Assembly: GCA_964519895.1 (NCBI GenBank)
Contig: CAZFLE010000015.1
Coordinates: forward strand, 2,073 to 66,072
DNA length: 64,000 nt
Source: an uncultured Enterobacterales bacterium
GTDB taxonomy: Bacteria > Myxococcota_A > UBA796 > CAJQPC01
Direction: 5' to 3'
The stretch's first letter is position 1. The number at the start of each line of letters is the position of its first letter. A program made the translations under genes and the position numbers. The notes under the pieces were generated by a model that was given only the letters and a program-made list of their open reading frames with translations, did not search any database and was not told the DNA's origin. Positions 4,123 to 59,698 of the stretch are shown one piece after another.

Positions 4123-4286
4123 CTAGTCCCCTGTCTCACAAGTTCGTGAGGTGATCGCGCAGCCATCGCCGTGGCTGGTGGTCTGCTCGAGCGGCCGGTG
4201 TGGCCGAGTCACATCAAAGCGAGAGCGGGCCGCCAGGCGCGGCGAGGGCAAGTGAGCGCCCACGAACTTGTGAGACAGGGGACTAG
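4123..4286. mobile_element. MITE-like element, copy 1 (164 bp, perfect 26-bp terminal inverted repeats, flanked by CTAG)
   Basis: The left arm ctagtcccctgtctcacaagttcgtg is the exact reverse complement of the right arm cacgaacttgtgagacaggggactag. A gap-free colinear second copy lies at 28337-28500, and the two share an identical 27-nt core gcggccggtgtggccgagtcacatcaa. Confidence 0.7.
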
Positions 4287-15880: not shown

Positions 15881-15955
15881 GGGCGATTAACTCAGTGGGA
15901 GAGTGCTACCTTCACACGGTAGAAGTCACTGGTTCAAATCCAGTATCGCCCACCA
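15881..15955 (+). tRNA. tRNA-Val (anticodon CAC), CCA encoded
   Basis: A full cloverleaf was folded by hand. Acceptor stem gggcgat/atcgccc. D stem actc/gagt. Anticodon stem ctacc/ggtag with loop ttCACac. T stem actgg/ccagt with loop ttcaaat. Discriminator a, then CCA. Confidence 0.9.
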
Positions 15956-17426: not shown

Positions 17427-17656
17427 GGCGGTCTACGGTCCATTGCCGTCGAAGCCACGGCCGCGTCCACGAGGACACGGGCGACGGCGTACATGGCCGC
17501 ACGCAGCTCGGCGAGCTGTCGGGGGGTCAGCTCGGCGGAGCCACGCAGCTCGCTGAATCGTTCGAGGGAGAGCACGGCGGGGGCCTGCTCGCGTCGGGTG
17601 GACGCGGGTTGACCGACCGCTCGGGCTCATCCCGTGGCGCTCAGGGGGCTGCATGG

Positions 17657-18514
17657 TCACTCCTCAGCGGCACGCGGGGTCGTCCCGTCGTGCTCCGAGG
17701 GCTTGGTGTGGACGGTCCGCTCAACATGGAGGATGGAGCCGTCGCGGCGAACGATGCGGAGGTCCTGGTAGTCGTCGGACGCCACCAGGTCGGCCAACTC
17801 GGCGTGGTCGTCGAGCGAGACGCGCTGCGTCGCGGCGACGTGGCGAACCTCGCCGTTCTTCAGGCGGACCTCGACGCGGTCGAAGTCGCCAGACCGGATC
17901 ATCTTGACGACGTCCTGCTCCGGCTTGGACATCAGGTTGCCCATCATGGCGTGGCCCAGTTCGGCCATGAAAGTGCGCCCCCGGCCGTGGCGTGGCAGCT
18001 CGATCGGAGGCTTGCGACAGCGCAAGAGACGCCGGACCAGTGGGTTGACGTTGAGCAGGATGACCGACGGCGGCGCCGCGTCCGGGTCGTTGGACTCCTC
18101 CAAGTCACCGTGCTGAAGCAGGTCGATGATCTCCATCGCTGAGTCCATGACGAAGCGGCTCTTCAGGTCCGTCATCACGAACACCGGCAGGTCCAGCAGC
18201 GCGATCAGCCGGACGGCGGACATGAAGTGATCGGCGCCCTCGTCCAGCATGACGTCGCGGACGAAGCGCAGCGACCCGACGGGCACGCCGTAGCGCTTGC
18301 GGATCTCTGCCATCACCATCAGCGCGAAGACCTGGCGCGGAGTGTAGCGGCGCCATGACTCGCCGCGCCGCTCCTGGTCCGGGAGCACGCCCTTGCCGTC
18401 CCACTCGTTGAGCTGCCGGTACGACAGGTCTGCGGCCTTGCGTACATCGCCGGCGGTGAAGGGTCGGTCGGCCTCGTCAGGCATCGGACATCCAGAATGA
18501 ACGTGAGCGTTCAT
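17657..18514 (-). CDS. MerR-type HTH protein with uncharacterised C-terminal domain
   Basis: The N-terminus FTAGDVRKAADLSYRQLNEWDGKGVL looks like a MerR/excisionase-type HTH. The remaining ~200 aa are unrecognised. The start is at 18514 or 18484. Confidence 0.55.
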   Translation of the reverse strand: MNAHVHSGCPMPDEADRPFTAGDVRKAADLSYRQLNEWDGKGVLPDQERRGESWRRYTPRQVFALMVMAEIRKRYGVPVGSLRFVRDVMLDEGADHFMSAVRLIALLDLPVFVMTDLKSRFVMDSAMEIIDLLQHGDLEESNDPDAAPPSVILLNVNPLVRRLLRCRKPPIELPRHGRGRTFMAELGHAMMGNLMSKPEQDVVKMIRSGDFDRVEVRLKNGEVRHVAATQRVSLDDHAELADLVASDDYQDLRIVRRDGSILHVERTVHTKPSEHDGTTPRAAEE

Positions 18515-18625
18515 TCCTTCTACCGCGCCAGGTCTCCAGCGAGCAAGGGGAAATGTACGGCTCGGTTCAATCCTGCTCGGCTGGCGCGACGGTCGCGTCT
18601 GGTTGCAGCCCGTTGCGCGGACCGA

Positions 18626-19489
18626 TCAGGGCCCGGCCCGTTGGGGCTCCGGCATCCGCGCGAGCGCAGCCAGCCCGAGAGACGCCAGGGTCACACACGA
18701 CAGGGCAGTCAGCCAGGCGTTCCCCAGGACCCAGGCGGCCAACGTCGCCCCGGTCTCGCGCCAGACGATGTAGCCAGCCATGACCAGAACGAAGACGCCG
18801 AACCCGCGGCGAAGCGCCCCCTCGGGGACCCTGGACGCGAGCTTCGCACCAGCAAGCGCACCGACGACGGCGCCGGCGGTGACTGCGGCGGCAAGCTCGA
18901 AGTCGACCGACACATCAGCCGCGTGACCTGCAAACGCCGCGAACGACTTCAGCGCGATCACGAGCAGCGAGGTGCCGATCGCCCTGTGCATGTCCATTCC
19001 GCCAAGGAGAACCAGTGCCGGGACCACCAGGAAGCCGCCACCGGCACCGACCAGCCCGGTGGCGGCTCCCACGATGAGACCCTCGACGATAACCAGCGTC
19101 ACCGGCAGCGACCCGCCCTCCGACCGCCGCGCCGGCGTGCCGCGCCCGCGGAACATCCCGACAGCGGTCGCCACCATCATGGCGGCGAAGAGCAAGAGCA
19201 GCGTGGACCCGCTGAACCAGCCCGCCGCCCGGCCGCCGAGGTAGGCGCCAGCCATCGCCGTGGCGCCGAACAGCAACCCCGTGCGCCACGCGACGTTGCC
19301 CGAGCGTGCATGGGGCACGAGCGCGAAGGCTGAGGTCGTCCCAACGATCAGGAGGGACGTGGCGATGGCCTCGCGGGGCTCCAAGCCCACGGCGTAGGTC
19401 AGGATGGGGACCGCCAGGATCGACCCGCCACCGCCGAGGAGCCCGAGGGCGAGGCCGATGAGAACGGAGAGTGCAACAGCGAGCGCCAC
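18626..19489 (-). CDS. TauE/SafE (TSUP, DUF81) sulfite exporter family permease, copy 1
   Basis: 287 aa, polytopic, with repeated GGGGS/GAGGGF motifs. The GTG start is preceded by GGGAGG. Confidence 0.85.
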   Translation of the reverse strand: MALAVALSVLIGLALGLLGGGGSILAVPILTYAVGLEPREAIATSLLIVGTTSAFALVPHARSGNVAWRTGLLFGATAMAGAYLGGRAAGWFSGSTLLLLFAAMMVATAVGMFRGRGTPARRSEGGSLPVTLVIVEGLIVGAATGLVGAGGGFLVVPALVLLGGMDMHRAIGTSLLVIALKSFAAFAGHAADVSVDFELAAAVTAGAVVGALAGAKLASRVPEGALRRGFGVFVLVMAGYIVWRETGATLAAWVLGNAWLTALSCVTLASLGLAALARMPEPQRAGP

Positions 19490-19491
19490 GG

Positions 19492-19950
19492 CTACCTCCC
19501 CGCTTCAGCGGCGGCGGTGCGAGCGACGCGAGTCGCGGCGAAGCCGTCCAGGAAGTGAACCAGCAACATCCCACCGAGCATGGCTGCGACAAACGTGATC
19601 GCCTTGGGTCCGCCCGGCAGCGCTGAGACCACCGCAGGGCCGGGACAGTAGCCAGCCAGGCCCCACCCCACTCCGAAGAGGGCGGCGCCACCAACCAGCC
19701 GGCCATCGATGTCCCGCCTCGTCGGCCGGCTGAAGGACGTCGAGCACAGCGGCGCTGTTCGATGGTCGATGACCCGACGCAGAGGGGTGTGCACGAGGAG
19801 TGCCCCGACCATCACGACGCCGAGGCTGGGGTCCCACGGGCCAAGCAGGTCCAGGAAACCGACGACCACGTCCGGACGGGTCATCCCCGACACGACGAGG
19901 CCGGCGCCGAAGACCAGCCCGGAGAGAGCCGCTGTGATGAGACCCTTCAC
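19492..19950 (-). CDS. YeeE/YedE (sulfur transport, DUF395) half-protein B, copy 1
   Basis: Its GTG start overlaps the upstream stop (GTGA). It carries the [11 protein letters not shown] motif. Confidence 0.75.
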   Translation of the reverse strand: MKGLITAALSGLVFGAGLVVSGMTRPDVVVGFLDLLGPWDPSLGVVMVGALLVHTPLRRVIDHRTAPLCSTSFSRPTRRDIDGRLVGGAALFGVGWGLAGYCPGPAVVSALPGGPKAITFVAAMLGGMLLVHFLDGFAATRVARTAAAEAGR

Positions 19951-20378
19951 AGCGCACCTCCGAGCACATGGTTGACCGCGAAGGCACTGGCGGCGCCGGT
20001 GCCCATGAACGTCAGGACGCTGGTGAGCGACCGGGGTGACATCCGAGCCAAGCCACACACGCCGTGCCCGCTCGTGCAGCCGTTTCCGAGCCGGGTGCCA
20101 GCCCCGACGAGCAGCCCCGCGACAATGAGAGCGCCGGTGGACCGGGAGAGCGGATTCACGAATGCGTCCGGGACGACCGGGACGAGCAACAGCCCCGCGA
20201 GCACCAACCCGACAACGAAGGCCGCGCGCCAGTGGCGCTCTTGGGTCCGACGCTGAAGCAGCCCGCCGACGATGCCGCTGATCCCGGCGATGCGACCGTT
20301 GAACAGGAGGTACGAGGATGCCGCCAGCCCGATGAGCATCCCGCCGACGAGGGGAGGGAGGAGTGACTGCAGGGTCAT
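19947..20378 (-). CDS. YeeE/YedE (sulfur transport, DUF395) half-protein A, copy 1
   Basis: Its ATG at 20378 overlaps the pdo stop (ATGA). It carries the [12 protein letters not shown] motif. Confidence 0.75.
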   Translation of the reverse strand: MTLQSLLPPLVGGMLIGLAASSYLLFNGRIAGISGIVGGLLQRRTQERHWRAAFVVGLVLAGLLLVPVVPDAFVNPLSRSTGALIVAGLLVGAGTRLGNGCTSGHGVCGLARMSPRSLTSVLTFMGTGAASAFAVNHVLGGAL

Positions 20379-21433
20379 CGTGCTTCTCCTTCGACGGAGG
20401 CCCGGACGACAGGCAGGCCCCGATCGGTCCAGGCCTGCATCCCGCCTGAGACGGAAGCGATCTGGGAGAAGCCACTCGTGCGAAGCCTCTGAGCCGCCTC
20501 GGCCGACCGCCGGCCCGAGTGGCAGATCAACGCGATCCGGTCGTCGGTCGACCACTCGCTCGCGGCGTCAGCGAGCTTGCCGAGGGGGACGCGCTGGGCG
20601 TCAGGCGCGCACCCGAGCGGCCCACAGCACTCCGCGGGCTCGCGGATGTCGATCAGCCGGACGCGGGCCGCGTTCGCGGCGATCCACACGGGGTCGACCT
20701 CCGGGATGCCGGCACCAGTGAGGACGATGGGAAGGCCCGTCGCAGTCGCCCCACACGCCCGGTTGGCCGGCAGGGCGACGTCGATGCGCTTGGGGTACGG
20801 AAGGCCCAGGCCATTCATCAGCGCGATGAAGTCGCCCTCGGAGCGACCATGTCCGAGCCTGGCGTTGTGCCGCTTCTCGTCGCCGACGGTGCTGACGGTG
20901 CGGCCCTTGTAGTCGTGGCCGGGGTAGACGCGGGTGGCGTCCGGCAGCGTGAAGATCTGCTCGTGGACGCGGCGGTAGAGCGTCCTCGCGTCGCCCTCCT
21001 GGAAGTCGGTCCGGCCGCACCCGCCGATCAGCAAGGCATCGCCGGTGAACACCATCGTCTCGTCGAGCGTGACGAAGCTCACGCAGCCCGCGGTGTGGCC
21101 CGGCGTGGCCCGCACCTGCAGGCCGTAGCCGCCGAAGCGGACCACCTCGCCGTGGCCGACGGCCTGGTCGGAGCAGCTGACCCCGGCGGCCTCGCTAACC
21201 ACGGCGAGGCAGCCCAGCCGGTCCCGTAAGGCCGAGGCGCCGGTCACGTGGTCGGCGTGGACGTGGGTGTCGAGAGTGCACACCAGTCGGACCCCAAGGC
21301 TGTCGACGAGCGCAGCGTCCCGGTCGACCTGTTCCAGCACGGGATCGATGATGACTGCCTCACGGCTCTCGGGGTCGGCGAGGAGGTAGGTGAAGGTGGA
21401 CGTGTCCGGGTCGAACAACTGTCGGAAGATCAT
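20375..21433 (-). CDS. Persulfide dioxygenase (MBL fold, ETHE1-like) fused to a rhodanese domain, copy 1
   Basis: The start was trimmed to MIFRQLF to match copy 2. It has the THVHADHV metal motif and a C-terminal rhodanese domain with the active-site loop CHSGRRS. Confidence 0.85.
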   Translation of the reverse strand: MIFRQLFDPDTSTFTYLLADPESREAVIIDPVLEQVDRDAALVDSLGVRLVCTLDTHVHADHVTGASALRDRLGCLAVVSEAAGVSCSDQAVGHGEVVRFGGYGLQVRATPGHTAGCVSFVTLDETMVFTGDALLIGGCGRTDFQEGDARTLYRRVHEQIFTLPDATRVYPGHDYKGRTVSTVGDEKRHNARLGHGRSEGDFIALMNGLGLPYPKRIDVALPANRACGATATGLPIVLTGAGIPEVDPVWIAANAARVRLIDIREPAECCGPLGCAPDAQRVPLGKLADAASEWSTDDRIALICHSGRRSAEAAQRLRTSGFSQIASVSGGMQAWTDRGLPVVRASVEGEAR

Positions 21434-21468
21434 GGCAGAGCCCTCGGAGTGAGACAGCTTGGACAAGA

Positions 21469-21483
21469 GCAACGGGCGTGCCA
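21469..21483 (-). promoter_or_regulatory. Sigma-54 promoter (-24/-12) of sulfur module 1
   Basis: The minus strand reads TGGCACgcccgTTGC, an exact match to the TGGCAC-N5-TTGC consensus. It lies about 35 nt upstream of the pdo ATG. Confidence 0.75.
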
Positions 21484-21554
21484 ACCCCCCGCGGCACGTA
21501 TTTCCGCAGACTTAGGTGGTTGCCTCCAGGCCTCGTATTTCATAGTGTCTCGAC

Positions 21555-22505
21555 ATGACGAAACAACATCGTCCAAAGACTCGGACGTTCCACGGCATGG
21601 TGACCGCCTCGCGGCAGATGGAGCGGCTGTTCGAGCTGGTAGGACGCGTCGCCGAGTCTGGCTCCTCCGTGCTGATCCGGGGGGAGACCGGCACGGGCAA
21701 AGAGCTGGTGGCGCGCGCCATCCACTCCTTGAGCCCTCGGCGGGACGCGACGTTCCGAGCAGTGAACTGCGCAACGCTCACGCCCGAGCTGCTTGCGTCG
21801 GAGCTGTTCGGGCACCGCCGGGGCGCCTTCACCGGAGCTGTACAGGACCGGCCCGGTCTCTTCGCTCTGGCCAATGGCGGCACGCTGTTCTTGGACGAGA
21901 TCGCCGAGATCCCGCTGGACATCCAGGGGCGCCTCCTCCGGGTCCTTCAGGAGCGCTCCTTCGTGCCTGTCGGCGGGACCGATCCAGTCCAGGTCGACGT
22001 GCGCGTCCTCGCGGCCACGCACCGTGCGCTGAGACGCGAGGTCGAGGCCGGGCGCTTCCGGGCCGACCTGATGTACCGGATCCGCGTCGTGCCGCTCTTC
22101 CTCCCGCGTCTGGTCGAGCGCTCCGGCGACATCGAAGCGCTGGCGTGGCACTTCATCGACGAGTTCAACGTCCGCGGGTTCCGCCAGGTCGAGCGCCTCG
22201 CCGCCGAGACCCTCGACCTGATGCACGCTCACGCCTGGCCGGGCAACGTCCGCGAGCTGCGCAACGTCATCGAGCACGCCTTCGTGATGGGAACCGGACC
22301 CGACCTGTTGCCGGGTGACCTGACGCCCGAGCTTCGCGGAGAGCCCCCGCCTGGAGACCCCGCCGACCGGACGGAAGAGAGCGCCGAGCGGGACCGCATC
22401 CTCACCGCGCTGAACCGCGCCCGAGGCCACAAGGGCAAGGCCGCCGAGTACCTCGGGTGGAGCCGGTCGACCCTGTGGCGAAAGATGCGCGAGCAACGAC
22501 TGTAG
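21555..22505 (+). CDS. Sigma-54-dependent transcriptional activator lacking an N-terminal sensory domain, copy 1
   Basis: 316 aa. The AAA+ core starts about 12 aa from the N-terminus ([27 protein letters not shown]). It has a C-terminal Fis-type HTH ([21 protein letters not shown]). Confidence 0.9.
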
Positions 22506-22520
22506 GGCGGCGCTGGACGC

Positions 22521-22961
22521 TCACCAGACCGACAGCAGGTCGTCGAGGGCGCGCTGCTCCGCCGCGTCCCGTGTCCAGGTCTCCAGGCCCGTCAAGACCG
22601 GCCCGTCACGCTTCGGCAGGCCGGCCCGGTCGAGGATGGCGCAGGCAGCGCGGATGCGGGCGCCGGTCTGGACCGAGCTGTCGGCGACGACGCCACGGAG
22701 GAATCGCATCGACTCCAAGGCAGCCGCGCCCACCTCCTCGCGGACCGCCGCCAGGCGCTCGGCTCGCCGGCGCCTCAGCTCCTCTTGAACCGCCGCGACC
22801 TGGAGCCAACGCCAACAGGTGGCTCGATGGACACCCAGCTCCGCCGCCACCTCGGGCACCGTCTTCCCGGCGAGGAGGTGGTCTACAAACAGGTCGTGGC
22901 GGGGCTCAAGCTGGCCCACTTGCACTCCAGTCTGGCCACTCCCCTGCCTGGTGTAAATCAA
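22521..22961 (-). CDS. Hypothetical HTH DNA-binding protein (phage/element-type)
   Basis: LLAGKTVPEVAAELGVHRATCWRWL is a clear HTH. The start codon is uncertain (TTG at 22961 or an internal GTG). Confidence 0.45.
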   Translation of the reverse strand: MIYTRQGSGQTGVQVGQLEPRHDLFVDHLLAGKTVPEVAAELGVHRATCWRWLQVAAVQEELRRRRAERLAAVREEVGAAALESMRFLRGVVADSSVQTGARIRAACAILDRAGLPKRDGPVLTGLETWTRDAAEQRALDDLLSVW

Positions 22962-23080
22962 GCAGTGCAGTCCTCCCAGGCGGGCACAATGGCCTCATGA
23001 GGCCCTCCCAGAGCCCCGTATCTGCTGCTCAACGATGGAAAGCCGCAAGTTCTCGACCTCCGAGAGCCACCCCCACACCC

Positions 23081-23150
23081 GGTTCCAACTCGGAGTGATT
23101 TGGCCCACCATCGATTGGCCCCGTCAAAGCCTACCTTTGACGGGGTCTTT
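23081..23150 (+). repeat. Degenerate tRNA 3'-tail-like remnant R1 plus terminator-like hairpin
   Basis: The tail ggttccaactcggagtgatttggcccaccatcga is followed by the hairpin ccccgtcaaag..ctttgacgggg and a T-rich run. The unit is paralogous to the one at 23976-24039. Confidence 0.5.
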
Positions 23151-23187
23151 CGTTCTTCCGCTCCACGTGCCCTACCGGACGCCCGAA

Positions 23188-23598
23188 CTACTCCGGTAGC
23201 ACGCGGAGAGCCGGGCAGTGTCTGGGCGCGACCGTCCGCATGTGTCGGTGGTCCAGACTGATGACCACGTCCGTGCCAAGACGCTCAGCGAGGGCAATGA
23301 CTGATGCGTCCGTGCCTCCGAGCGGGAAGGACGCGTACTGCTCCACCAACTCGGCCATCCTCGAGAGATCCTCGGGCCTCGGCCCCTCGACGTCAAAGTC
23401 CGACAGTCCCCGCAAGAACTCCGCTTCCACCCTCGCTCCCATTCGCGAACCGATGAGGTAGGTCGCCTCGGCGACGACCATCGCCGGGATGAGCAATCGC
23501 AGTCCGGGCGTCCGGAGCGCAGCGACGCAGGCTTCGTGATCCGCGTCGTCGGCGTCGACCGCCGCATACAGCGGACCCGTGTCAACGATCGCCAGCAC
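23188..23598 (-). CDS. vapC: PIN-domain toxin VapC (module 1)
   Basis: LAIVDTGPLYAAVDADD at the N-terminus, GGTDASVIALAE, and the C-terminal SLDHRH match the PIN acidic residues. The GTG start was chosen 17 nt inside the antitoxin gene. Confidence 0.75.
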   Translation of the reverse strand: MLAIVDTGPLYAAVDADDADHEACVAALRTPGLRLLIPAMVVAEATYLIGSRMGARVEAEFLRGLSDFDVEGPRPEDLSRMAELVEQYASFPLGGTDASVIALAERLGTDVVISLDHRHMRTVAPRHCPALRVLPE

Positions 23599-23824
23599 CG
23601 GTCCACTCCCGCGCGAGGATCTCTTCGGCTTTCCGGGCGGTGTGGCGCTGCCCGCTGCGCCCGATTCCGGCGAAGGGGAGGGCGCGAGGTTCCTCGTCGT
23701 CGAGACCGAGGGCGGCGGACAGAGCCCGGCGAACGACATCGGAGACCGACGTACCTGCGCGCTCCGCCCGACGCGCGAGGACGACGGCCATCTCTTCCGG
23801 CAGCGAAATGGTGATGCGATGCAT
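23582..23824 (-). CDS. Ribbon-helix-helix (CopG-like) antitoxin
   Basis: 80 aa. MHRITISLPEEMAVVLARRAERAGTSVSDVVRRAL is a canonical RHH. An AT-rich direct repeat (agtatgaagtatg, read on the minus strand at about 23821-23833) spans the start codon and the first few upstream bases. Confidence 0.75.
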   Translation of the reverse strand: MHRITISLPEEMAVVLARRAERAGTSVSDVVRRALSAALGLDDEEPRALPFAGIGRSGQRHTARKAEEILAREWTGAGDR

Positions 23825-23900
23825 ACTTCATACTACATCATCATCTGAGGGCGGGCAAGTCGCGTCAATCGTCCGATCAGGTCGCCGTCCCAACCCTCCC

Positions 23901-23921
23901 GGTCCAGGTTCGCCCACCATC
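23901..23921 (+). repeat. tRNA 3'-tail-like remnant R2
   Basis: ggtccaggttcgcccaccatc shares ccaggttcgcccaccatc with R3 and is followed by the imperfect hairpin ccctgcc..ggcgggg. Confidence 0.5.
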
Positions 23922-23975
23922 AAACCCTGCCGACGAGGCGGGGTTTCTTGCTCTGGCCACTGCCGGACGCCGGCC

Positions 23976-24003
23976 GGTTCAATCCAGGTTCGCCCACCAT
24001 CGA
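23976..24003 (+). repeat. tRNA-Val 3'-tail copy R3 (candidate attR / displaced original tRNA end)
   Basis: ggttcaatccaggttcgcccacca compares with the tRNA's ggttcaaatccagtatcgcccacca. There is one indel and two substitutions by hand alignment. Confidence 0.6.
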
Positions 24004-24007
24004 CCGA

Positions 24008-24039
24008 GCCCGTCAAAATTCATCTTCGACGGGCTTTTT
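24008..24039 (+). terminator. Rho-independent terminator following remnant R3
   Basis: The stem gcccgtc/gacgggc has a 13-nt loop and is followed by ttttt. Confidence 0.65.
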
Positions 24040-24131
24040 CGCGTCCTTGTCTGGCGCGACCATGCTGGACGTTCGAACTCTGGCCCGCCTGGCACTGAGC
24101 ACGGAACTTCACTATCGGTTAAGATTCGTGC

Positions 24132-24680
24132 ATGGGGGCAACCGGACCATCGTGGGACCAACTGTACGAACATGCCGTCGCCCAGGCCGGGTATTTCACC
24201 ACCGCGCAGGCAGCGGAGGCCGGCTACTCGTCGCCACTGCTGCACAAGTACCTCGCCAACGGCAAGGTCATGCGCATCCGTCGCGGCGTGTACCGGCTGG
24301 CACACTTCCCGGCGGGCGACGACGAGGATCTGGTGGTGCTCTGGCTCTGGAGCGACCGCGAAGGCGTGTTCAGCCACGAGACCGCGCTGGTCCGCCACGA
24401 GCTGTCCGATCTGCTGCCGCACGACGCCGAGATGACGGTGCCGCCATCGTGGCGGCGTCGACGGCTGCGGGTCCCCATGGGGCTGCACCTCCACTTCGCG
24501 CCCGTCCCCGCAGGCGAGCGCACCTGGTATGGCGCCGTGCCGATCACGACCGCCGCCCGCACCATTCGGGACTGCCGAGCCGCAGGTGTGTCGCCGGAGT
24601 TCGTTGACCAGGCCATTCGGCAGGGCGTTGGGCGAGGGCTGTTCACGGAGGGCGAGGTTGGCAACGGGGGCAGGTCGTGA
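24132..24680 (+). CDS. AbiEi-family antitoxin / transcriptional regulator (type IV TA)
   Basis: GYFTTAQAAEAGYSSPLLHKYLANGKVMRIRRGVYRL matches the AbiEi N-terminal winged-helix pattern. It overlaps the toxin gene by 4 nt. Confidence 0.8.
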   Translation: MGATGPSWDQLYEHAVAQAGYFTTAQAAEAGYSSPLLHKYLANGKVMRIRRGVYRLAHFPAGDDEDLVVLWLWSDREGVFSHETALVRHELSDLLPHDAEMTVPPSWRRRRLRVPMGLHLHFAPVPAGERTWYGAVPITTAARTIRDCRAAGVSPEFVDQAIRQGVGRGLFTEGEVGNGGRS

Positions 24681-25579
24681 AGCGCTACGCCACGCCGCTC
24701 GCCTTCAAGGAGGCGCTCGAAGCCCGGCTCCGGGCGGCGTCTCGGTCTGGCGGCCAGGAGCAGAACCGGCTGCGGATGCGCCTGCTGATGGACCGTTTCG
24801 CCGCGCGCGTGGTCCATGAGTACGGCGAGCACGTCGTGCTCAAGGGCGGCGTCGTACTCGAGCTCCGCCTGTCAGAGGCCCGTGCGACCAAGGATCTCGA
24901 CCTTCGTCTGGTCGGCGACCCCGATGCCACCCTCACCAGGCTCCAACGCGCCGGCAGAGAGAACCTCGGGGATCACCTGGCGTTCGAGGTCGGGCCCGAC
25001 CCTCGCCACCCCACGATCGAGTCGGAGGGCATGCAATACCAGGGGCTCAGGTTCCGCGTTCAGGCCCGGCTCGCCGCCAAGGTCTACGGTGGCCCCTTCG
25101 GGGTCGACGCCGCCTTTGCGGAGCCTTTGGTGGGCGACCCCGAGCTGCTGCGTGGCTCCGAGTTCCTCGCCTTCGCCGGGGTCGAGCCGCCGACCCTCCT
25201 AGTCTACCCGCTGGAGGCGCACATCGCAGAGAAGCTGCACGCCTACACGCTGCCCCGCTCGCGTCCGAATTCCCGGGTGAAGGACCTGCCCGACCTTGCG
25301 CTGCTCGCCAGGGTCCGGCCCATTGATGCCGTCACGCTGCGGGACGCTCTCGATAGGACCTTCGCGCATCGAGCGGTTCACACGGTCCCCACCGAGGTAC
25401 CCGACCCGCCCGAGGCATGGCGAGTGCCGTACGCACGGTTGGCTCGTCGGGACCGCCTGCCGTGGATCGACCTCGCCGCGGTGGCCGAAACGACCCGAGC
25501 CTTCCTCGACCCCGTACTCTCCGGCGGTGGGGGGCTCTGGAGTCCCAGCGCCTGGCGGTGGGAGGCCGAAGAGCCCTGA
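24677..25579 (+). CDS. AbiEii/AbiGii nucleotidyltransferase toxin (DUF1814)
   Basis: 300 aa with the VLKGGVVLELRL..ATKDLDL nucleotidyltransferase motif and family-typical length. Confidence 0.85.
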   Translation: MKRYATPLAFKEALEARLRAASRSGGQEQNRLRMRLLMDRFAARVVHEYGEHVVLKGGVVLELRLSEARATKDLDLRLVGDPDATLTRLQRAGRENLGDHLAFEVGPDPRHPTIESEGMQYQGLRFRVQARLAAKVYGGPFGVDAAFAEPLVGDPELLRGSEFLAFAGVEPPTLLVYPLEAHIAEKLHAYTLPRSRPNSRVKDLPDLALLARVRPIDAVTLRDALDRTFAHRAVHTVPTEVPDPPEAWRVPYARLARRDRLPWIDLAAVAETTRAFLDPVLSGGGGLWSPSAWRWEAEEP

Positions 25580-25842
25580 GCGGATTCACAGCATGGCGCC
25601 GAGCGCGCGAACGTGGAAGATCCAGGCGCCGTCCCATCCCTCCGCTTCGACCCAGAAAGTTCGAACGTCGTCCAAGACGGCCCACCATCTCAGAGCAGCC
25701 GCTGGAGCCGATCCAGCGGCTGTTGCTGCTTCGCGTCGTGAACCAGTGCTAGCAGCGTCGCTTCGCCCAACTGCAGCCTGCCGCTCGCACAGCTCGTTGA
25801 CGTCGCCTGTGAACACCTCTACGTTGATGGCAGAGAACTACC

Positions 25843-26097
25843 ATGAGTACTACCATCGATTCTGCCGGAAGGTTGGTCATCCCCAAGGCCGTGCGCGACG
25901 CGGCCGGTATACAGCCAGGCACCCCCCTTGATGTGCGCTTCCGGGACGGGCGCATCGAGGTCGAGCCCGTGCCTCTCGACGTCACTATCGAGTCCGTCGG
26001 TGGCGTCGCCGTCGCCACGCCACGGGAGCCCGTCGACACGTTGTCGGCCGCGGCGGTCTCAGCCACCCGCGGCCGCCTGCGCGACGAGCGAGGCTGA
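25843..26097 (+). CDS. vapB: AbrB/SpoVT-fold antitoxin (VapB-like, module 2)
   Basis: SAGRLVIPKAVRDAAGIQPGTPLDV is a canonical SpoVT/AbrB swapped hairpin. Confidence 0.8.
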   Translation: MSTTIDSAGRLVIPKAVRDAAGIQPGTPLDVRFRDGRIEVEPVPLDVTIESVGGVAVATPREPVDTLSAAAVSATRGRLRDERG

Positions 26098-26116
26098 CCT
26101 GACCGCGGGCACCGCC

Positions 26117-26545
26117 TTGGACACCAGCGTCATCATCCCGGCGTTGCTGGCGTGGCACGAACACCATGGTGCAGCACTTCCCGTCGTCACCGAAGCCCTG
26201 GCCCAGGAAGAGCAAGCCATCCTCCCGCTACCCGCGCTGATCGAGGCCTACGCTGTGCTCACTCGTCTCCCAGCGCCATGGCGGCTGCGTGCCTCGGACG
26301 CTCACCGACTGCTGGTAGACACCTTTCGTGGCAGAGTGCGGGTCGTCGGCCTGGATGCAGACGACGCCTGGTCCCTCCTGTCCCAGGTGGTCACCAACGG
26401 CGTGTCGGGCGGCGCGACCTACGATGCCCACATCGCGGCATGTGCCAGGAAGGGCGGTGCCGGGCGCCTCGCCACCTTCAATCGTCGCCACTTCGAGCGC
26501 CTCGATCTCGGTGCTGTCGCCCTGTGGGTGCCGTCGGTCCACTGA
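26117..26545 (+). CDS. vapC: PIN-domain toxin VapC (module 2)
   Basis: LDTSVIIPALL at the N-terminus, GGATYDAHIAACA, and the C-terminal TFNRRHF. The start is ambiguous (TTG at 26117 or CTG at 26099) and lies just after the antitoxin stop. Confidence 0.7.
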   Translation: MDTSVIIPALLAWHEHHGAALPVVTEALAQEEQAILPLPALIEAYAVLTRLPAPWRLRASDAHRLLVDTFRGRVRVVGLDADDAWSLLSQVVTNGVSGGATYDAHIAACARKGGAGRLATFNRRHFERLDLGAVALWVPSVH

Positions 26546-26634
26546 CCCCGCCCTCAGGGCGGCTCCGGTGGATTCCCCGGCTCCCCAGTCACCGCGTGCA
26601 CCGCCTGGGCCGCACGGAGGTCTCGACCTGGACA

Positions 26635-26661
26635 ATACAGTTATAATCGTGTATATACATG
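26635..26661 (+). promoter_or_regulatory. AT-rich promoter/operator of the arsR-like gene
   Basis: ATACAgttataatcgTGTATATACAtg contains TATAAT (26642-26647) and the perfect 10-bp palindrome TGTATATACA, which abuts the start codon. The surrounding sequence is about 70% GC. Confidence 0.5.
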
Positions 26662-27003
26662 TTTATGAATACTTCACTCCAGGCCCTGGCAGACCCCAGC
26701 CGACGCCGCATCGTCGAGCTGCTGCTCGCCCGGGAGCTGCCGGTCGGCGAGCTGGTCGAGGCCTTGCCCATCGCCCAGTCCGGCGTGTCCCGGCACCTGC
26801 GCATCCTGCGAGAGGCCGGCATGGTGCGGTGCCGGGCAGAGGGTCAGCGGCGGCTCTACGCCCTACAACCCGAGCCCTTCGCCGAGCTCTCGGACTGGCT
26901 GGCCGAGGTGCGGCGGCACTGGGACCACAGTCTGGATCGCTTCGAGATGGCGCTGGCGCAGCGCCAGTCCCCCACCCCACCCGAGACCAAGGACGAGACA
27001 TGA
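26659..27003 (+). CDS. ArsR/SmtB family transcriptional regulator
   Basis: LADPSRRRIVELL...ELPVGELVEALPIAQSGVSRHLRILREAGMV is a winged HTH. The start may be the second ATG at 26665. Confidence 0.85.
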   Translation: MFMNTSLQALADPSRRRIVELLLARELPVGELVEALPIAQSGVSRHLRILREAGMVRCRAEGQRRLYALQPEPFAELSDWLAEVRRHWDHSLDRFEMALAQRQSPTPPETKDET

Positions 27004-27455
27004 GCACGCAACAGACCATCGAGCGGGTCTTCGACGCACCCCTGGCGCTGATCTGGGAGCTCTGGACCACCGCGGCGGGCCGCGGAGCCTGGTACGGGCC
27101 GCGAGGCTTCGTGACAGAGGTGCACCGCTACGAGCTGCACGTCGGGGGCGCGTTCGACTACACGATGCGGGCGGGCTCCCCCGAGATGGCCGCGAACATG
27201 GAGAAGATGGGCCGGCCCCCGTCCTTTACGGTGAACGCTGTCATCACGGCCATCGAGCCCATGACCCACCTGGCCTGGCGAGAGACCCACGGCAGCGCCA
27301 GCATCGACACGGCGGTGACCTTCACCGAGCAGCCCGAGGGCGTGCACATGACCCTGGTGCTCGCGGCCGCGACGGAGCAGCAGCTGGGCGGCGCCGCGAT
27401 GGGCTGGCGCAGCACACTCGACCGGCTCGAGGAGCAATTGGCACAAGGGGCCTGA
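27000..27455 (+). CDS. SRPBCC superfamily protein (AHSA1/Aha1-like)
   Basis: Its ATG overlaps the arsR stop (ATGA). IERVFDAPLALIWELWT is typical of AHSA1-domain partners of ArsR regulators. Confidence 0.75.
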   Translation: MSTQQTIERVFDAPLALIWELWTTAAGRGAWYGPRGFVTEVHRYELHVGGAFDYTMRAGSPEMAANMEKMGRPPSFTVNAVITAIEPMTHLAWRETHGSASIDTAVTFTEQPEGVHMTLVLAAATEQQLGGAAMGWRSTLDRLEEQLAQGA

Positions 27456-27467
27456 AACCTTGGGCGT

Positions 27468-28334
27468 TCACCTGGGCGCCGGGTGCTCCCGTTCCGGCGC
27501 CCGGGCGAGCGCACCCAGTCCGAGGGCCGCCAGGACCACGCCCCACAGACCGGCGATCCACCGGTTGTCGACCACCCAGGCGGCCGCAGACGCCCCGGTC
27601 TCCCGCCAGACGATGAAGCCGGCCATCGCCAGGACGAAGACCCCGAACCCACGACGGAGCGACGCTCCCGGGACCCTGGACGCGAGCTGGGCACCCGCCA
27701 GCGCGCCCAGCACGGCCCCGGCGGTGACCGCACCGGCCAGCGCCAGGTCGACGGGCACATCGACCGCGTGGCCCGCATAGGCCGCAAAGGACTTCAGGGC
27801 GATCACGAGCAACGAGGTTCCGATGGCCCGGTGCATGTCCATGCCCCCGAGCAGGACCAGCGCCGGCACCACCAGGAAGCCCCCGCCGGCGCCCACCAGC
27901 CCTGTCGCCGCTCCGACCCCCAAGCCCTCGGCGACCACCAAGGCCACTGGCGGGGACCCGGCCCAGGGCCCCGGGGCCGCCGAGCTGCGGCCTCGGAACA
28001 TGCCCAGGGCGGTGGCGACCATCATGGCGGCGAACAGCAGGAGCAGCGTCGATCCGCTGAACCACCCGGCCGCCCGGCCGCCGAGGTAGCCCCCGGCCAT
28101 CGCCGTGGCCCCGAACAAGAGCCCCGTGCGCCAGGCCACGTTGCCCGCCCGCGCATGGGGCCAGAGCGCAAAGGCCGACGTGGTCCCGACGATCAGCAAG
28201 GACGTGGCGATGGCCTCGCGCGGCTCCAGACCCACGGCATAGGTCAGGATCGGCACCGCGAGGATCGACCCACCACCGCCCATCAGGCCAAGGGCGAGGC
28301 CGATGAGCACGGAGAGCGCCACGGCGATCCACAC
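27468..28334 (-). CDS. TauE/SafE (TSUP) sulfite exporter family permease, copy 2
   Basis: Colinear with copy 1. A GTG at 28334 (or 28322) was chosen because the track ORF start at 28379 lies inside the inserted repeat element. Confidence 0.8.
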   Translation of the reverse strand: MWIAVALSVLIGLALGLMGGGGSILAVPILTYAVGLEPREAIATSLLIVGTTSAFALWPHARAGNVAWRTGLLFGATAMAGGYLGGRAAGWFSGSTLLLLFAAMMVATALGMFRGRSSAAPGPWAGSPPVALVVAEGLGVGAATGLVGAGGGFLVVPALVLLGGMDMHRAIGTSLLVIALKSFAAYAGHAVDVPVDLALAGAVTAGAVLGALAGAQLASRVPGASLRRGFGVFVLAMAGFIVWRETGASAAAWVVDNRWIAGLWGVVLAALGLGALARAPEREHPAPR

Positions 28335-28336
28335 GG

Positions 28337-28500
28337 CTATTCCCCTGTCGCAGAAGTTCGCGAGGCACTCGCGAAGCAATCGTCGCGCCTGGTGGATTCC
28401 AGACGCGGCCGGTGTGGCCGAGTCACATCAACGCGGCTGGGAGCCGCCAGGCGCGACGAGGGCGAGCGAGTGTCCGTGAACTTCTGCGACATGGGACTAG
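28337..28500. mobile_element. MITE-like element, copy 2, inserted in the yeeE-B/tauE junction of sulfur module 2
   Basis: 164 bp, gap-free colinear with copy 1. The arms are ctattcccctgtcgcagaagttcgcg and cgtgaacttctgcgacatgggactag (23 of 26 pair). It is flanked by CTA(T)/CTA(G). The paralogous junction in module 1 (19487-19492) has no insert. Confidence 0.7.
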
Positions 28501-28955
28501 TGCCGCCGCTCAGGAGAGGCGACGCGGGCCAGGGGTCTCCCGGCGAGGGCGTCCACGCGGTGCACCAGCACCATGCCGGCCAACATGGCGGCCAGGAAGG
28601 TGAGCGCCTTGGGGCCGCCCGGCAGGGCAGAGACCACCGCAGGGCCCGGACAGTAGCCAGCCAGACCCCAGCCCACGCCAAAGAGGGCGGCGCCCACGAC
28701 CAGGCGGGCGTCGAGGTCCCGCCGGGTCGGCATCCTGAAGGCGTCGGAGCACAGGGGCGACCGCCGGCGTTCGATCAACCAGCGCAGCGGGGCGTGCACG
28801 AGCAGGGCCCCGACCATCACGACCCCCAGGCTCGGGTCCCAGGTGCCGAGGACGTCCAAGAAGCCGACGACCACGTCGGGGCGGGTCATCCCCGACACCA
28901 CGAGGCCGATGCCAAAGACCAGGCCCGAGGCGGCTGCGGTGATCAGTCCCCTCAC
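28497..28955 (-). CDS. YeeE/YedE half-protein B, copy 2
   Basis: GTGA start overlap as in copy 1, with the [11 protein letters not shown] motif. Its TAG stop lies in the terminal CTAG of the inserted element. Confidence 0.75.
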
Positions 28956-29383
28956 AGCCCACCTCCCAGCCACTGGCTGACCGCGGTGGCGCTGGCCGCG
29001 CCGGTGGCCATGAAGGTGAGCACGCTGACCAGCGAGCGCGGGGAGCTCCGAGCCAGCCCACACACGCCGTGCCCGCTGGTGCAGCCGTTCCCGAGCCGAG
29101 TGCCAGCGCCCACCAGCATCCCCGCGACGACGAGAGCGGCGGTGGACCGAGAGAGCGGATTCACGAAGGCCTCGGGAGCGGCAGGGGCGAGCAACAGTCC
29201 CGCCCCACTCAGCCCGATCACGAACGCGCCCTGGAGATGGCGGTCCCCAGTGCGACGCTGGAGCAGCCCGCCGACGATGCCGCTGATCCCAGCGACGCGA
29301 CCGTTGAACAACAGGTAGCCGGACGCCGCCAAGCCGATGAGCATCCCGCCCACGAGCGGCGGGAGGAGCGCTTGAATGGTCAT
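28952..29383 (-). CDS. YeeE/YedE half-protein A, copy 2
   Basis: ATGA overlap with the pdo stop, with the [12 protein letters not shown] motif. Confidence 0.75.
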
Positions 29384-30438
29384 CGTGTGGCTCCGTCGCT
29401 GGACACCCGCACCACTGGGAGGCCAAGGGCGGTCCAGGCGGCCATGCCGCCTTCCACGGACGCGACCTGGGCCAAGCCACGGGCCCGGAGCCCCAAGGCG
29501 GCGTCGCCCGAACGCCGGCCCGAGTGGCAGACCAGGGCGACCCGAGCGTCGCTCGACCACGCGCCCGCGGCCTCGCCGAGCTCGCCAAGGGGGACCCGCA
29601 AGGCGTTGGGAATGCACCCCAGCGGTCCGCAGCACTCGACCGGCTCGCGAATGTCGACCACCTGAAGCCGCGCCGGGTTCGCCGCCACCCACTGGGGGTC
29701 GACCTCGGGGATGCCGCCGCGGCTCATGACGATGGGAAGGCCCGTCGCAGGCACCCCGCACGCCCGGTTCGCGGGCAGCGCGACGTCGATGCGCCTGGGG
29801 TAGGGAAGCCCTAGCCCGTTCATCAAGCGGATGAAGTCAGCCTCGGGGCGTCCCTGCCCGAGCCGGGCATTGTGTTGCTTCTCGACGCCCACGGTGCTGA
29901 CCGTGCGGCCCCTGTAGTCGTGGCCGGGGTACACCCGGGTGGCGTCCGGAAGCGTGAAGATCTGCTCGTGCACGGAGCGGTAGAGGGTGCTCGCGTCGCC
30001 CTCCTGGAAGTCCGTGCGTCCGCAGCCGCCGATCAGCAGGGCGTCCCCGGTGAAGACCATGGCCTGGTCCAGGGTGACGAAGCTCACGCAGCCCGCGGTG
30101 TGACCCGGCGTGGCCCGGACCTGCAGCCCAAATCGACCGAACCGCACGACCTCGCCGTGCCCGACGGTCTGGTCGGAGCAGCTCACCCCTGCGGCCTCGC
30201 TGACCACCGCCTCGCAGCCGAGGCGGTCACGGAAAGCCGTGGCGCCGGTCACGTGATCGGCGTGCACGTGGGTGTCGAGCGTGCACACCAGGCGCAGGCC
30301 CAGCTCCTCGACCAGGGCCGCATCCCGCTCGACCTGCTCCAGCACGGGATCGATGATGACCGCCTGGGCACTGACGGGATCGGCCAGGAGGTAGGTGTAG
30401 GTGGAGGTGTCCGGGTCGAACAGCTGTCGGAAGATCAT
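29380..30438 (-). CDS. Persulfide dioxygenase-rhodanese fusion, copy 2
   Basis: 352 aa starting [18 protein letters not shown], with THVHADHV and a rhodanese CHSGRRS loop. Confidence 0.85.
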
Positions 30439-30472
30439 CGGGGTGCCTGGGAGGGAGTTGGCTTCACTGTGA

Positions 30473-30487
30473 GCAACGGCCGTGCCA
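30473..30487 (-). promoter_or_regulatory. Sigma-54 promoter (-24/-12) of sulfur module 2
   Basis: The minus strand reads TGGCACggccgTTGC, an exact consensus spacing, in the same position relative to pdo as in module 1. Confidence 0.75.
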
Positions 30488-30558
30488 ACACCTTCCGCCT
30501 CGCGTTTCCAGCCACTTGGAGACCTGCCGAACCAAGAGTTGATTCATAATGTCTCAAC

Positions 30559-31509
30559 ATGAAGCAATATGATCGTCCAAGCACGCGCACATTCCACGGC
30601 ATGGTGACCGCGTCACCCCAGATGGCCCATCTCTTCGCGCTGGTGGCGCGCGTCTCCGAGCCTGATTCGTCTGTGTTGATCCGCGGAGAGACCGGCACCG
30701 GCAAGGAGCTCGTTGCCCGGGCCATTCATGCCCTGAGCCCCCGCCGGAACGCGGCCTTTCGGGCGGTCAACTGCGCCACCCTCACCCCCGAGCTGCTCGC
30801 GTCGGAGCTGTTCGGGCACCGTCGCGGCGCCTTCACCGGGGCCATCCGGGACAAGCCTGGTCTGTTCCAGCTCGCCGACGGCGGCACGCTCTTCCTGGAC
30901 GAGATCGCCGAGATCCCCTTGGACATCCAGGGGCGACTGCTGCGGGTCCTGCAGGAGCGCTCCTTCGTGCCGGTGGGCGGGACCGAGCCGGTGCAGGTCG
31001 ACGTGCGCGTGCTGGCGGCGACGCACCGAGCCCTCCGCCGCGAAGTCCAAGCCGGGCGCTTCCGGGCAGACCTGATGTACCGGGTCCGTGTGGTGCCGCT
31101 GTTTCTCCCGCGCCTGGTGGAGCGCACGGGCGACATCGAGGCCCTGGCCTGGCACTTCATCGACGACTTCAACCGGCGGGGCTTCCGGCAGGTCGACCAT
31201 CTGGCGCCAGAGACCCTGGACCTGCTCCACGCCCACCCGTGGCCGGGCAACGTGCGCGAGCTCCGGAACGTCATCGAGCACGCCTTCGTGATGGGCACGG
31301 GCCCCGACCTGGTGCCCGACGACCTGACGCCCGAGCTTCGCGGGGAGCCGCCGCGGGCAGACCCCGGCGCGGCGACCGCGCTCCAGGCCGAGCGGGACCG
31401 GATCCTGTCGGCGCTGAACCGCGCGCGAGGGCACAAGGGCAAGGCCGCGGAGATCCTGGGGTGCAGCCGATCGACGCTGTGGCGGAAGATGCGGGAGCAG
31501 CGGCTCTGA
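30559..31509 (+). CDS. Sigma-54-dependent transcriptional activator lacking a sensory domain, copy 2
   Basis: 316 aa, colinear with copy 1 (about 45 mismatches by hand alignment). It has GAFTGA, Walker A/B and a Fis HTH. Confidence 0.9.
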   Translation: MKQYDRPSTRTFHGMVTASPQMAHLFALVARVSEPDSSVLIRGETGTGKELVARAIHALSPRRNAAFRAVNCATLTPELLASELFGHRRGAFTGAIRDKPGLFQLADGGTLFLDEIAEIPLDIQGRLLRVLQERSFVPVGGTEPVQVDVRVLAATHRALRREVQAGRFRADLMYRVRVVPLFLPRLVERTGDIEALAWHFIDDFNRRGFRQVDHLAPETLDLLHAHPWPGNVRELRNVIEHAFVMGTGPDLVPDDLTPELRGEPPRADPGAATALQAERDRILSALNRARGHKGKAAEILGCSRSTLWRKMREQRL

Positions 31510-58887: not shown

Positions 58888-58984
58888 GCGGCTGTCGACT
58901 CCCCTGGTCCGAGCCCGCGCCCCGACCTCCTGGAGTCTGGCACGAATGTTGCTTGCAGGCAATGACCGCCGCTGCCGGAAGCCT

Positions 58985-59698
58985 TCAGGAGGACCAGCTC
59001 GCCCCCAGCCAGCGCTCCCGGGCTCGCGGATCCTGGGCGACGTCTTCGGGCGCACCCTCGAACACCAGGCGGCCTTCGACCAGCAGGAGGACGCGGTCAC
59101 AGGCCGAGAGCGCCTCGCGGACCGCGTGGTCGGTCAGGAGCACCCCCAGCCCCGCAGCTGCCAGCGCCCTGAAGCGGGCCACCAGGCCCCCCACCGCGAC
59201 GGGGTCGACCCCCGCAAAGGGCTCGTCGAGCAGGAGTACTCGCGGATCGGCGGCCAGGCACCGTGCGATCTCCAGGCGCCGCCGCTCGCCGCCGGACAGC
59301 GCTGTGGCGGGCTGGTCTGCCAGCGCGGAGAGGCCGGCATCGGCCAGCAGGCCCTGGGCGGCCGCTCGGGGCGCCCCGCGGGCCTCCAGGGGCACGAACA
59401 GGTGCTGCCGGACCGTCAGGCCGCGGAACAAGGTGGCGTGCTGAGGCAGGTACCCCAGCCCGGCGCGGACCCGCGCGTGGAGCGGCCCGGTGAGGGGGAC
59501 CCCGCGGAGCCGGACGTCCCCGGCGTCCGGCTTCAGCAGCCCGGTCAGCAGCTGAAAGGTCGTGGTCTTGCCGGCGCCATTCGGGCCCAGGAGCCCGACC
59601 ACCTCACCCGCGTGCACCGACAGGTCCAGCCCATCCACGACCCGCCGGCCCGCCCACGAGCGACGCAGTCCCCGGGCCTCGAGCAGCGGTGCGCTCAC
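58985..59698 (-). CDS. lptB: LPS export ABC transporter ATP-binding protein
   Basis: Walker A GPNGAGKTT, signature LSGGERRR, Walker B LLLDEP. It has the conserved lptA-lptB-rpoN context. Its GTG start overlaps the upstream stop. Confidence 0.85.
   Translation of the reverse strand: MSAPLLEARGLRRSWAGRRVVDGLDLSVHAGEVVGLLGPNGAGKTTTFQLLTGLLKPDAGDVRLRGVPLTGPLHARVRAGLGYLPQHATLFRGLTVRQHLFVPLEARGAPRAAAQGLLADAGLSALADQPATALSGGERRRLEIARCLAADPRVLLLDEPFAGVDPVAVGGLVARFRALAAAGLGVLLTDHAVREALSACDRVLLLVEGRLVFEGAPEDVAQDPRARERWLGASWSS

Follow-up and report, generated by a model that had tools for sequence, protein, structure and literature searches.

Two diverged copies of a predicted sulfur-oxidation cassette beside a tRNA-Val serine-recombinase island in an uncultured Myxococcota-like bacterium

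A 64,000-nt stretch of DNA from an uncultured, deep-branching Myxococcota-like lineage (contig CAZFLE010000015.1 of assembly GCA_964519895.1, positions 2,073 to 66,072; hereafter the window) carries two complete copies of a five-gene module predicted to oxidise zero-valent sulfur and persulfide. Module 1 (18626-22505) and module 2 (27468-31509) have identical gene order and strand and are separated by about 5 kb. Each pairs a divergently transcribed sigma-54 activator gene with genes for a persulfide dioxygenase (PDO)-rhodanese fusion, two YedE-like proteins and a TauE-family exporter. Neither copy is broken, purifying selection acts on both (dN/dS 0.12-0.26), and their divergence is old. Module 1 lies next to the gene for a large serine recombinase that ends inside a tRNA-Val gene. 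With moderate confidence, we think that a serine-recombinase element targeting tRNA-Val brought module 1 in as cargo from a close relative, and that it now stands beside an older copy.

Genes were placed from frame-specific GC content and translation, and families were assigned with Pfam. The activator gene of module 1 (act1; 21555-22505, + strand) encodes 316 aa. The four remaining genes of this module, all on the - strand, encode the PDO-rhodanese fusion (pdo1; 20375-21433; 352 aa; Lactamase_B and Rhodanese), the YedE1-like protein (yeeA; 19947-20378; 143 aa; a Sulf_transp half), the YedE2-like protein (yeeB; 19492-19950; 152 aa; DUF6691, E 5e-42) and a full-length member of the TauE/SafE sulfite exporter family (tauE; 18626-19489; 287 aa; TauE, E 8e-51, residues 5-240). 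Their counterparts in module 2 are the activator gene (30559-31509, +; 316 aa) and, on the - strand, pdo2 (29380-30438; 352 aa), yeeA2 (28952-29383; 143 aa), yeeB2 (28497-28955; 152 aa) and tauE2 (27468-28334; 288 aa). The Pfam content, order and strand bear out the initial annotation, made by reading the sequence, which had described two diverged and complete five-gene modules.

When the window was compared with itself by blastn, the two modules gave its only long repeats: positions 19533-22495 matched 28538-31499 with 80.9% identity over 2985 nt, and 18648-19501 matched 27493-28345 with 79.6% identity over 854 nt, in agreement with an earlier estimate of three quarters to four fifths. Protein identities between the copies are 85.8% for the activator, 80.1% for the PDO-rhodanese fusion, 81.1% for YeeA, 75.7% for YeeB and 81.9% for TauE. 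The two activators align without gaps and differ at exactly 45 of their 316 residues; about 45 had been counted by hand. Over all five genes dS is 0.57-0.72 and dN 0.09-0.17. Identity is uniform across the modules (0.6-0.9 per 100 nt) and shows no conversion tracts, so gene conversion between the copies was rejected. The similarity ends at the tauE stop codon on one side and at the activator stop codon on the other, and the flanking sequences are unrelated. With 80% DNA identity, a dS of about 0.65, homology that stops at stop codons and no shared flanks, a recent tandem (segmental) duplication was likewise rejected, as the initial annotation had argued. Its statement that the start/stop overlaps are the same holds for two of the junctions, ATGA at pdo/yeeA and GTGA at yeeA/yeeB, which are present in both copies; the third differs, with a gap of 2 nt between yeeB1 and tauE1 and of 162 nt between yeeB2 and tauE2. 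The wider gap is due to a 164-nt palindromic insertion (28337-28500) that module 1 lacks.

The PDO-rhodanese fusion matches the structure of the Burkholderia phytofirmans PDO-rhodanese fusion BpPRF (5ve3) over residues 1-340, that is, over both domains, with an E value of 7.7e-111. Both copies have the HxHxDH metal motif as HVHADH at residue 57 and the rhodanese loop CHSGRRS at residue 304, and all 10 Cys residues occupy equal positions. Besides this catalytic loop, residues 269-275, where the rhodanese domain starts, form a conserved Cys-rich stretch, ECCGPLGC, in both. Cys101 and Cys108 of YeeA and Cys69 and Cys102 of YeeB are also kept in both copies. By position number, as opposed to direct alignment, they resemble C104 of CpYedE1 and C101 of CpYedE2, the essential Cys of each subunit in a published YedE1E2 system (PMC10812762).

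As the initial annotation had noted, sulfide:quinone oxidoreductase (SQR) is missing: Pfam scans of the two modules and of the other scanned open reading frames (ORFs) of the window found no protein of the Pyr_redox_2/SQR type. It is doubtful whether this means, as was concluded, that the source of the persulfide has to be encoded elsewhere. YedE1E2 is reported to import zero-valent sulfur and to make glutathione persulfide (GSSH), which is the PDO substrate, form faster (PMC10812762). With this published role, the lack of SQR need not mean that the substrate is made elsewhere. By homology, each module is predicted to be a self-contained, conserved cassette that oxidises zero-valent sulfur and persulfide. 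The YedE1/YedE2-like pair would carry polysulfide or elemental sulfur through the membrane and assist in making glutathione persulfide, which the PDO domain of the fusion would oxidise to sulfite. The rhodanese domain, with its intact CHSGRRS loop, would transfer sulfane sulfur (in persulfide formation or thiosulfate turnover), and the sulfite would be exported by TauE.

Upstream of pdo in both modules is an exact sigma-54 promoter sequence, TGGCACG-N4-TTGCT, also reported in the initial annotation. On the - strand, TGGCACGCCCGTTGCT (21468-21483) lies 35 nt from the pdo1 ATG and TGGCACGGCCGTTGCT (30472-30487) lies 34 nt from the pdo2 ATG. With one mismatch allowed, five sites are found in the window, against 0.27 expected by chance. 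The gene for sigma-54 itself, rpoN (57445-58887, -), is in the same window. A third exact match (58938-58953, +) is located in the intergenic region between rpoN and an lptB-like gene that ends near 58985 (-); it is on the opposite strand, pointing antisense into lptB, and could be a chance match or a sigma-54 site in rpoN autoregulation. A candidate activator-binding dyad with the core TGTCTCGACA (21541-21557) directly precedes the act1 ATG on its 5' side and lies some 60-75 nt upstream of the -24 element. Both modules, and the closest locus outside this genome (L092), share the conserved dyad core, TGTC-N2-GACA.

The predicted activators consist of a sigma-54 AAA+ domain and a Fis-type helix-turn-helix (HTH). 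Pfam identifies Sigma54_activat (E 6e-66), AAA_lid_14 and HTH_8 (residues 276-313), and in both copies Walker A is at residue 43, GAFTGA at 90 and Walker B at 111; the module 1 protein has a single Cys (C72). The activator aligns with residues 111-423 of the 423-aa Acinetobacter baumannii FisR at 43% identity. No N-terminal sensory domain was found: the AAA+ domain begins at residue 16, leaving a short N-terminal peptide that is common to both copies, and the 121-nt intergenic region fits no missed exon. The protein is therefore FisR-like at its promoter and, lacking the sensory domain, falls outside FisR proper. The best 120 homologues are 297-358 aa long, so the missing domain is a feature of the clade and does not reflect truncation; the closest of them (64-73% identity) all lack it. 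One homologue with 70% identity (P0004, at locus L095) adjoins no sulfur genes. Both copies have one and the same recognition helix, RSTLWRKM. With this shared helix and the shared upstream dyad, the two copies probably cross-regulate each other. Transcription of each module would start from the -24/-12 promoter seen in the sequence and would require the divergently encoded AAA+ activator. Since that activator has no sensory domain, it would be controlled in trans or through its own expression level.

The island in which module 1 lies begins at a tRNA-Val(CAC) gene (15881-15955, +; found by ARAGORN, Rfam tRNA score 68.7 bits), which appears to be the attachment point of the whole array. The adjacent gene, on the - strand (15912-17426), encodes a 504-aa large serine recombinase that is full length relative to its homologues. 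Its Pfam domains (Resolvase, Recombinase and Zn_ribbon_recom) and its PHROG match (phrog_95, integrase, E 1e-82) rule out a tyrosine integrase. The last 14 codons of the gene (15912-15955), which encode a tail ending in VGDTGFEPVTSTV, are the reverse complement of the 3' half of tRNA-Val, and the stop codon overlaps the tRNA anticodon. If the enzyme targets this tRNA gene, integration and excision would rewrite its C-terminus, as the 3' end of its gene is antisense to the tRNA.

Tails of this kind are common among relatives of the recombinase, for which the overlap with tRNA was judged at the protein level. The motif [GR][FILV][ED][PL] occurs within the last 25 residues in 97 of the 150 best cluster representatives (33-59% identity) and in 4 of 379 unrelated control proteins, and in 70 of the 97 it starts exactly 8 residues from the C-terminus. 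In an alignment of 29 sequences the G, E and P of the motif are invariant, and a typical tail in the family reads ASPTGFEPVLPP. GFEP is the antisense reading of the tRNA T-loop consensus, GGTTCGAATCC. These tails suggest that the recombinase family is a whole clade of tRNA-targeting serine integrases, of which a limited literature search found no description. A metagenome scan with the recombinase gave matches of only 25-32% identity, and tblastn searches of phages and plasmids gave less than 33%. No homologue from this clade occurs in the loci gathered for comparison.

Between the recombinase gene and module 1 is a gene for a 275-aa MerR-like HTH protein (17657-18484, -; Pfam MerR_1, E 7.5e-6). 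It had no PHROG or NCBIfam match and is possibly the regulator of the element or its recombination directionality factor. On the far side of module 1, the last gene before the first tRNA remnant encodes a small HTH protein (22521-22961, -; HTH_23) with weak similarity to terminase small subunits. Four tRNA-like remnants follow, all on the + strand. R1 (23068-23152) consists of a degenerate tRNA 3' part, GGTTCCAACTC...GGCCCACCATC, and a terminator hairpin, and is the proposed right end of the element; its tRNA part (23068-23118), though degenerate, is homologous to R3 over 53 nt. R2 (23903-23921) has its own hairpin. R3 (23975-24001, with a hairpin that runs to 24041) reads GGTTCAATCCAGGTTCGCCCACCA and represents about 24 nt of the T-arm and acceptor end. 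R4, the last (25660-25735), reads GTTCGAACG...GGCCCACCATC and also has a hairpin. Of the five exact occurrences of the decamer GCCCACCATC in the window, four (23103, 23912, 23992 and 25680) are intergenic, on the + strand and followed by a hairpin. With one mismatch allowed, no remnant of this type was found between tRNA-Val and 23103, and neither a tRNA remnant nor a recombinase was found to the right of 25.7 kb. The acceptor-stem sequence of R2 and R3, TTCGCCC, would give a mismatch at position 7-66 if paired with the 5' end that the tRNA has now.

The segments between the remnants contain toxin-antitoxin pairs only: an RHH antitoxin/PIN toxin pair (23188-23824, -; Pfam RHH_1 and PIN) between R1 and R2, and an AbiEi/AbiEii pair (24132-25579, +; Pfam) between R3 and R4. 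It looks as if the decayed layers of the island have kept only addiction modules. Beyond the last remnant are a MazE/PIN pair (25843-26545, +) and an ArsR/AHSA1 pair (26659-27455, +). The region between the modules is thus filled, apart from the small HTH gene, with toxin-antitoxin systems and an ArsR pair, as first described. The ArsR protein beside module 2 was considered as a sulfur sensor of the BigR/SqrR type and rejected, since its score of 44 bits is below the cut-off of 155 and its sequence contains a single Cys.

When 5.8 billion proteins were searched, the second copy came out as the nearest relative of the first. The module 1 activator found itself, then copy 2 at 87% identity, and then sequences at 73% or less; pdo1 found a 99% variant from the same population, then copy 2 at 80%, and then sequences at 63%. 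In L092, the nearest outside relative, all five genes recur in unchanged order, and its identities to copy 1 and copy 2 are, respectively, 68.1% and 68.4% for the activator, 63.2% and 63.3% for PDO, 66.2% and 66.2% for YeeA, 63.7% and 63.6% for YeeB, and 72.0% and 71.2% for TauE. Looser versions of the cassette are found in Myxococcales, Bradymonadales and other metagenome-assembled genomes. A scan of the GTDB representatives with act1, in a set that does not contain this genome, gave a best match of 68% and no flanking synteny.

All 90%-identity clusters of proteins from the window contain this population only, and the closest Gnd proteins from elsewhere show 80% and 76% identity. Zwf and Gnd of the nearest relatives sampled are 76-83% identical to those encoded here, with dS of 0.64-0.76 and dN of 0.13-0.19. 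The split between the modules is as deep as this split between orthologues, with dS serving as a poor clock in all of these comparisons because pS (0.40-0.61) is near saturation at a GC content of third codon positions (GC3) close to 0.9. A donor at that depth would be unsampled, and the sister relation of the copies is therefore compatible with transfer and with duplication alike; the equal divergence of the modules and of Zwf/Gnd likewise fits either history, acquisition from an unsampled close relative or duplication long ago in the lineage itself. The initial annotation had proposed that copies which are each other's closest relatives, with synonymous-only divergence, would point to a duplication within the genome. 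The copies are mutually closest for both the activator and PDO, with 200/200 bootstrap support, but their divergence is not confined to synonymous sites.

In the reading that we favour, an element of about 7.2 kb (about 15956-23118) would comprise the recombinase, the MerR-like protein, module 1 and the small HTH protein, and would be the most recent layer of an island built by serial integration at tRNA-Val. Modules 1 and 2 would have parted before integration, either in a lineage closely related to this one or on the element, and module 2 would be the older copy in this genome. The extent of the newest layer, from 15956 to about 23118, follows from the position of the recombinase at the tRNA and of the first remnant only beyond module 1. 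Lying beside the recombinase, between tRNA-Val and the first of the four remnants, module 1 is placed as the cargo of an integrative element would be. Its composition differs too: GC3 falls from 0.92 in the flanking genes to 0.895 in module 2 and 0.864 in module 1, and is lowest, at 0.81, in the toxin-antitoxin genes. At aligned codons with discordant GC3, G or C is present in copy 2 only at 122 and in copy 1 only at 82 (p=0.006), and the codon fit of module 1 to the flanking genes is poorer than that of module 2.

Several observations weigh against this reading. The compositional difference is modest. R1 is degenerate, and large serine recombinases need no long identity between attachment sites, so the remnants may not be footprints of this recombinase. 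Among the assembled contigs of this population, searched through a gene of the left flank, there was no empty site, circular junction or excised form; all were colinear or ended inside the tRNA. The searches with act1 and pdo1 found no donor closer to either copy than the other copy is. The copies are equally far from the outgroups and were grouped together in 200 of 200 neighbour-joining bootstrap replicates, for the activator and for PDO. To the right of module 2, the sequence just upstream of zwf (about 1.1 kb in the relatives' contigs) is not syntenic in either of the two nearest relatives; as no genes are shared there, module 2 is not established as ancestral at this site, and the earlier description of it as resident found no support. 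What stands of the original proposal, that module 1 was acquired horizontally on the recombinase element, is the recombinase segment at tRNA-Val and the lower GC3; the mutual closeness of the copies does not agree with it.

That closeness, together with the equal rates, would be expected if the modules arose by an old duplication in direct orientation within the lineage and were both inherited, the recombinase gene, MerR-like gene and toxin-antitoxin cassettes having been inserted later, so that module 1 was never cargo. We regard this as possible, though less probable than transfer on the element. The common orientation of the modules, the short distance of 5 kb between them, the purifying selection on both and the lack of a sampled donor are all in keeping with it. 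There are also precedents in the paralogous PDO-rhodanese genes of Sandaracinus and in the second YedE1E2 pairs present in 7 strains (PMC10812762). Against it, there is no tRNA-like remnant between the MerR-like gene and tauE1, the first remnant lying past module 1, and GC3 at aligned codons is significantly lower in module 1 although both copies reside in one genome. The serial-integration model, moreover, makes the segment nearest the tRNA the newest, yet the divergence of module 1 is old.

Both modules might instead be island cargo, the entire region that starts at tRNA-Val and stops just short of zwf (about 15.9-33 kb) being variable and having received two integrations from two related donors, with module 2 in an older, decayed layer. 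The gene directly upstream of zwf does differ in both nearest relatives, the codon fit of module 2 is also below that of the flanking genes (-0.95 vs -0.74), and toxin-antitoxin pairs and the ArsR pair stand beside module 2. We consider this rather improbable, as the remnants and the recombinase are confined to the left of 25.7 kb, the GC3 of module 2 lies within the range of the flanking genes and the contigs of the relatives extend only about 1.1 kb upstream of zwf. A chimeric assembly, in which one locus from two co-occurring strains or species had been merged, would fit the breaks that several assemblies show at the module 2 palindrome and at the tRNA, but we think it very improbable. In assemblies made independently from several samples (L081, L082, L083 and L097), one contig covers module 1, the spacer and tauE2 with at least 99.9% identity, genes from either side of the break occur together in each of two long contigs of different origin (87,534 and 88,347 nt), and the flanks of the two modules are unrelated.

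The ends of contigs were compared in eight of the population's assemblies (L083, L085, L098, L100, L084, L086, L081 and L087). They often fall at 15910-15948 (in the tRNA), at 22544, at 24060-24075 (just past R3) and at 28370-28500 (in the palindrome). Repeats might explain this clustering, or else variation in the population where the island borders lie; the contig ends yielded no alternative junction.

The insertion in module 2 resembles a miniature inverted-repeat transposable element. It sits exactly from the yeeB2 stop to the tauE2 start, has TAG at both ends, and its end supplies the GGGGA just upstream of the tauE2 GTG. The palindrome is nearly perfect, with terminal inverted repeats CTAGTCCCCTGTC...GACAGGGGACTAG and a predicted RNA fold of -102.6 kcal/mol (z -10.3). 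A second copy, about 80-85% identical, is present at 4123-4286. A known RNA family was rejected as an explanation, since Rfam finds only tRNA. Two ENA assemblies break at the element.

Two other regions of the window have unusual gene content. In an ORF of 773 aa (4308-6629, -), a polyprenyl synthetase domain is fused with CrtC-like and lipocalin-like domains; this arrangement, in a carotenoid or isoprenoid context, looks unusual. Directly after the zwf-pgl-gnd operon, at 36633-39820, are a Planctomycete-type PSD/PSCyt3 (DUF1592-like) gene and a gene for an HXXSHH (DUF1552-like) protein; in the two nearest relatives different genes occupy this position.

The cassette is of an already known type, in which a sulfur-oxidation operon for PRF, YedE1E2 and TauE is under FisR-like control, and its duplication is in itself ordinary, whether by gene duplication or by transfer between close relatives. 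We propose tentatively that a clade of tRNA-targeting large serine integrases, undescribed in our limited literature search and having its last 8-14 codons antisense to the tRNA T-arm and acceptor stem, here delivers a sulfur cassette together with its regulator, and that this regulator belongs to a widespread FisR-like clade without a sensory domain. A complete, self-regulated sulfur-detoxification cassette apparently travels here as cargo on a small element that targets tRNA, close to another copy long preserved intact. In this way tolerance to sulfide or polysulfide might spread, or double in dosage, in sulfidic sediments. An activator clade of this kind makes one ask how reactive sulfur is sensed; if the proposal is correct, sensing would take place through a partner protein or through the AAA+ core. 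Integrases with antisense-tRNA tails could also supply new tRNA-specific enzymes.

Among known systems, the cst operon of Staphylococcus aureus (CstR, TauE, CstA, CstB and SQR), which is induced by sulfide stress, shares with the present modules a persulfide dioxygenase with a rhodanese domain and a TauE exporter, but it is controlled by a CsoR-family repressor, includes SQR and has no YedE pair. Closer in their control are the FisR operons of Cupriavidus pinatubonensis JMP134 and A. baumannii, in which, as here, a divergent sigma-54 activator with AAA+ and Fis-HTH domains stands beside a sigma-54 promoter for pdo and tauE. The sensing cysteines of the Cupriavidus FisR are in its N-terminal regulatory domain. 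The activator described here, with 316 aa against the 423 aa of FisR, has no such domain and only a single Cys. The modules also differ from the FisR operons, represented in A. baumannii by the FisR-pdo-tauE operon A1S_1707-1711 (PMC7315123), in having no SQR, in the fusion of PDO to rhodanese and in the inclusion of the split YedE pair.

The fusion itself has the same full-length architecture as BpPRF (PDB 5VE3/5VE4/5VE5), with the HxHxDH motif and the rhodanese Cys loop, but stands in a different operon context, and its activity is predicted from homology. The YeeA/YeeB pair resembles YedE1E2/PmpAB, known from C. pinatubonensis and Sinorhizobium meliloti and from the BigR operons of Agrobacterium, Xylella and Acinetobacter: its two adjacent genes, for proteins of 143-152 aa, lie beside PDO, and by position number each protein has a candidate for the conserved Cys near position 101-104. 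Those operons are under ArsR-type BigR/SqrR repressors, whereas the present modules appear to be under a sigma-54 activator.

For the island, the nearest parallel is with the tycheposons, which stack next to tRNA genes with the newest element nearest the tRNA and with partial tRNAs marking decayed layers (10.1101/2020.12.28.424599). The element described here differs in its myxobacterium-like host (70% GC), in its small size, in the absence of replication genes and in a recombinase whose 3' end is antisense tRNA, and its mobility is putative. Like the tycheposons, it has a recombinase beside a full tRNA, partial tRNAs that would represent older layers, and niche-relevant cargo; a minority of tycheposons also use a large serine recombinase, as is the case here (10.1101/2020.12.28.424599).

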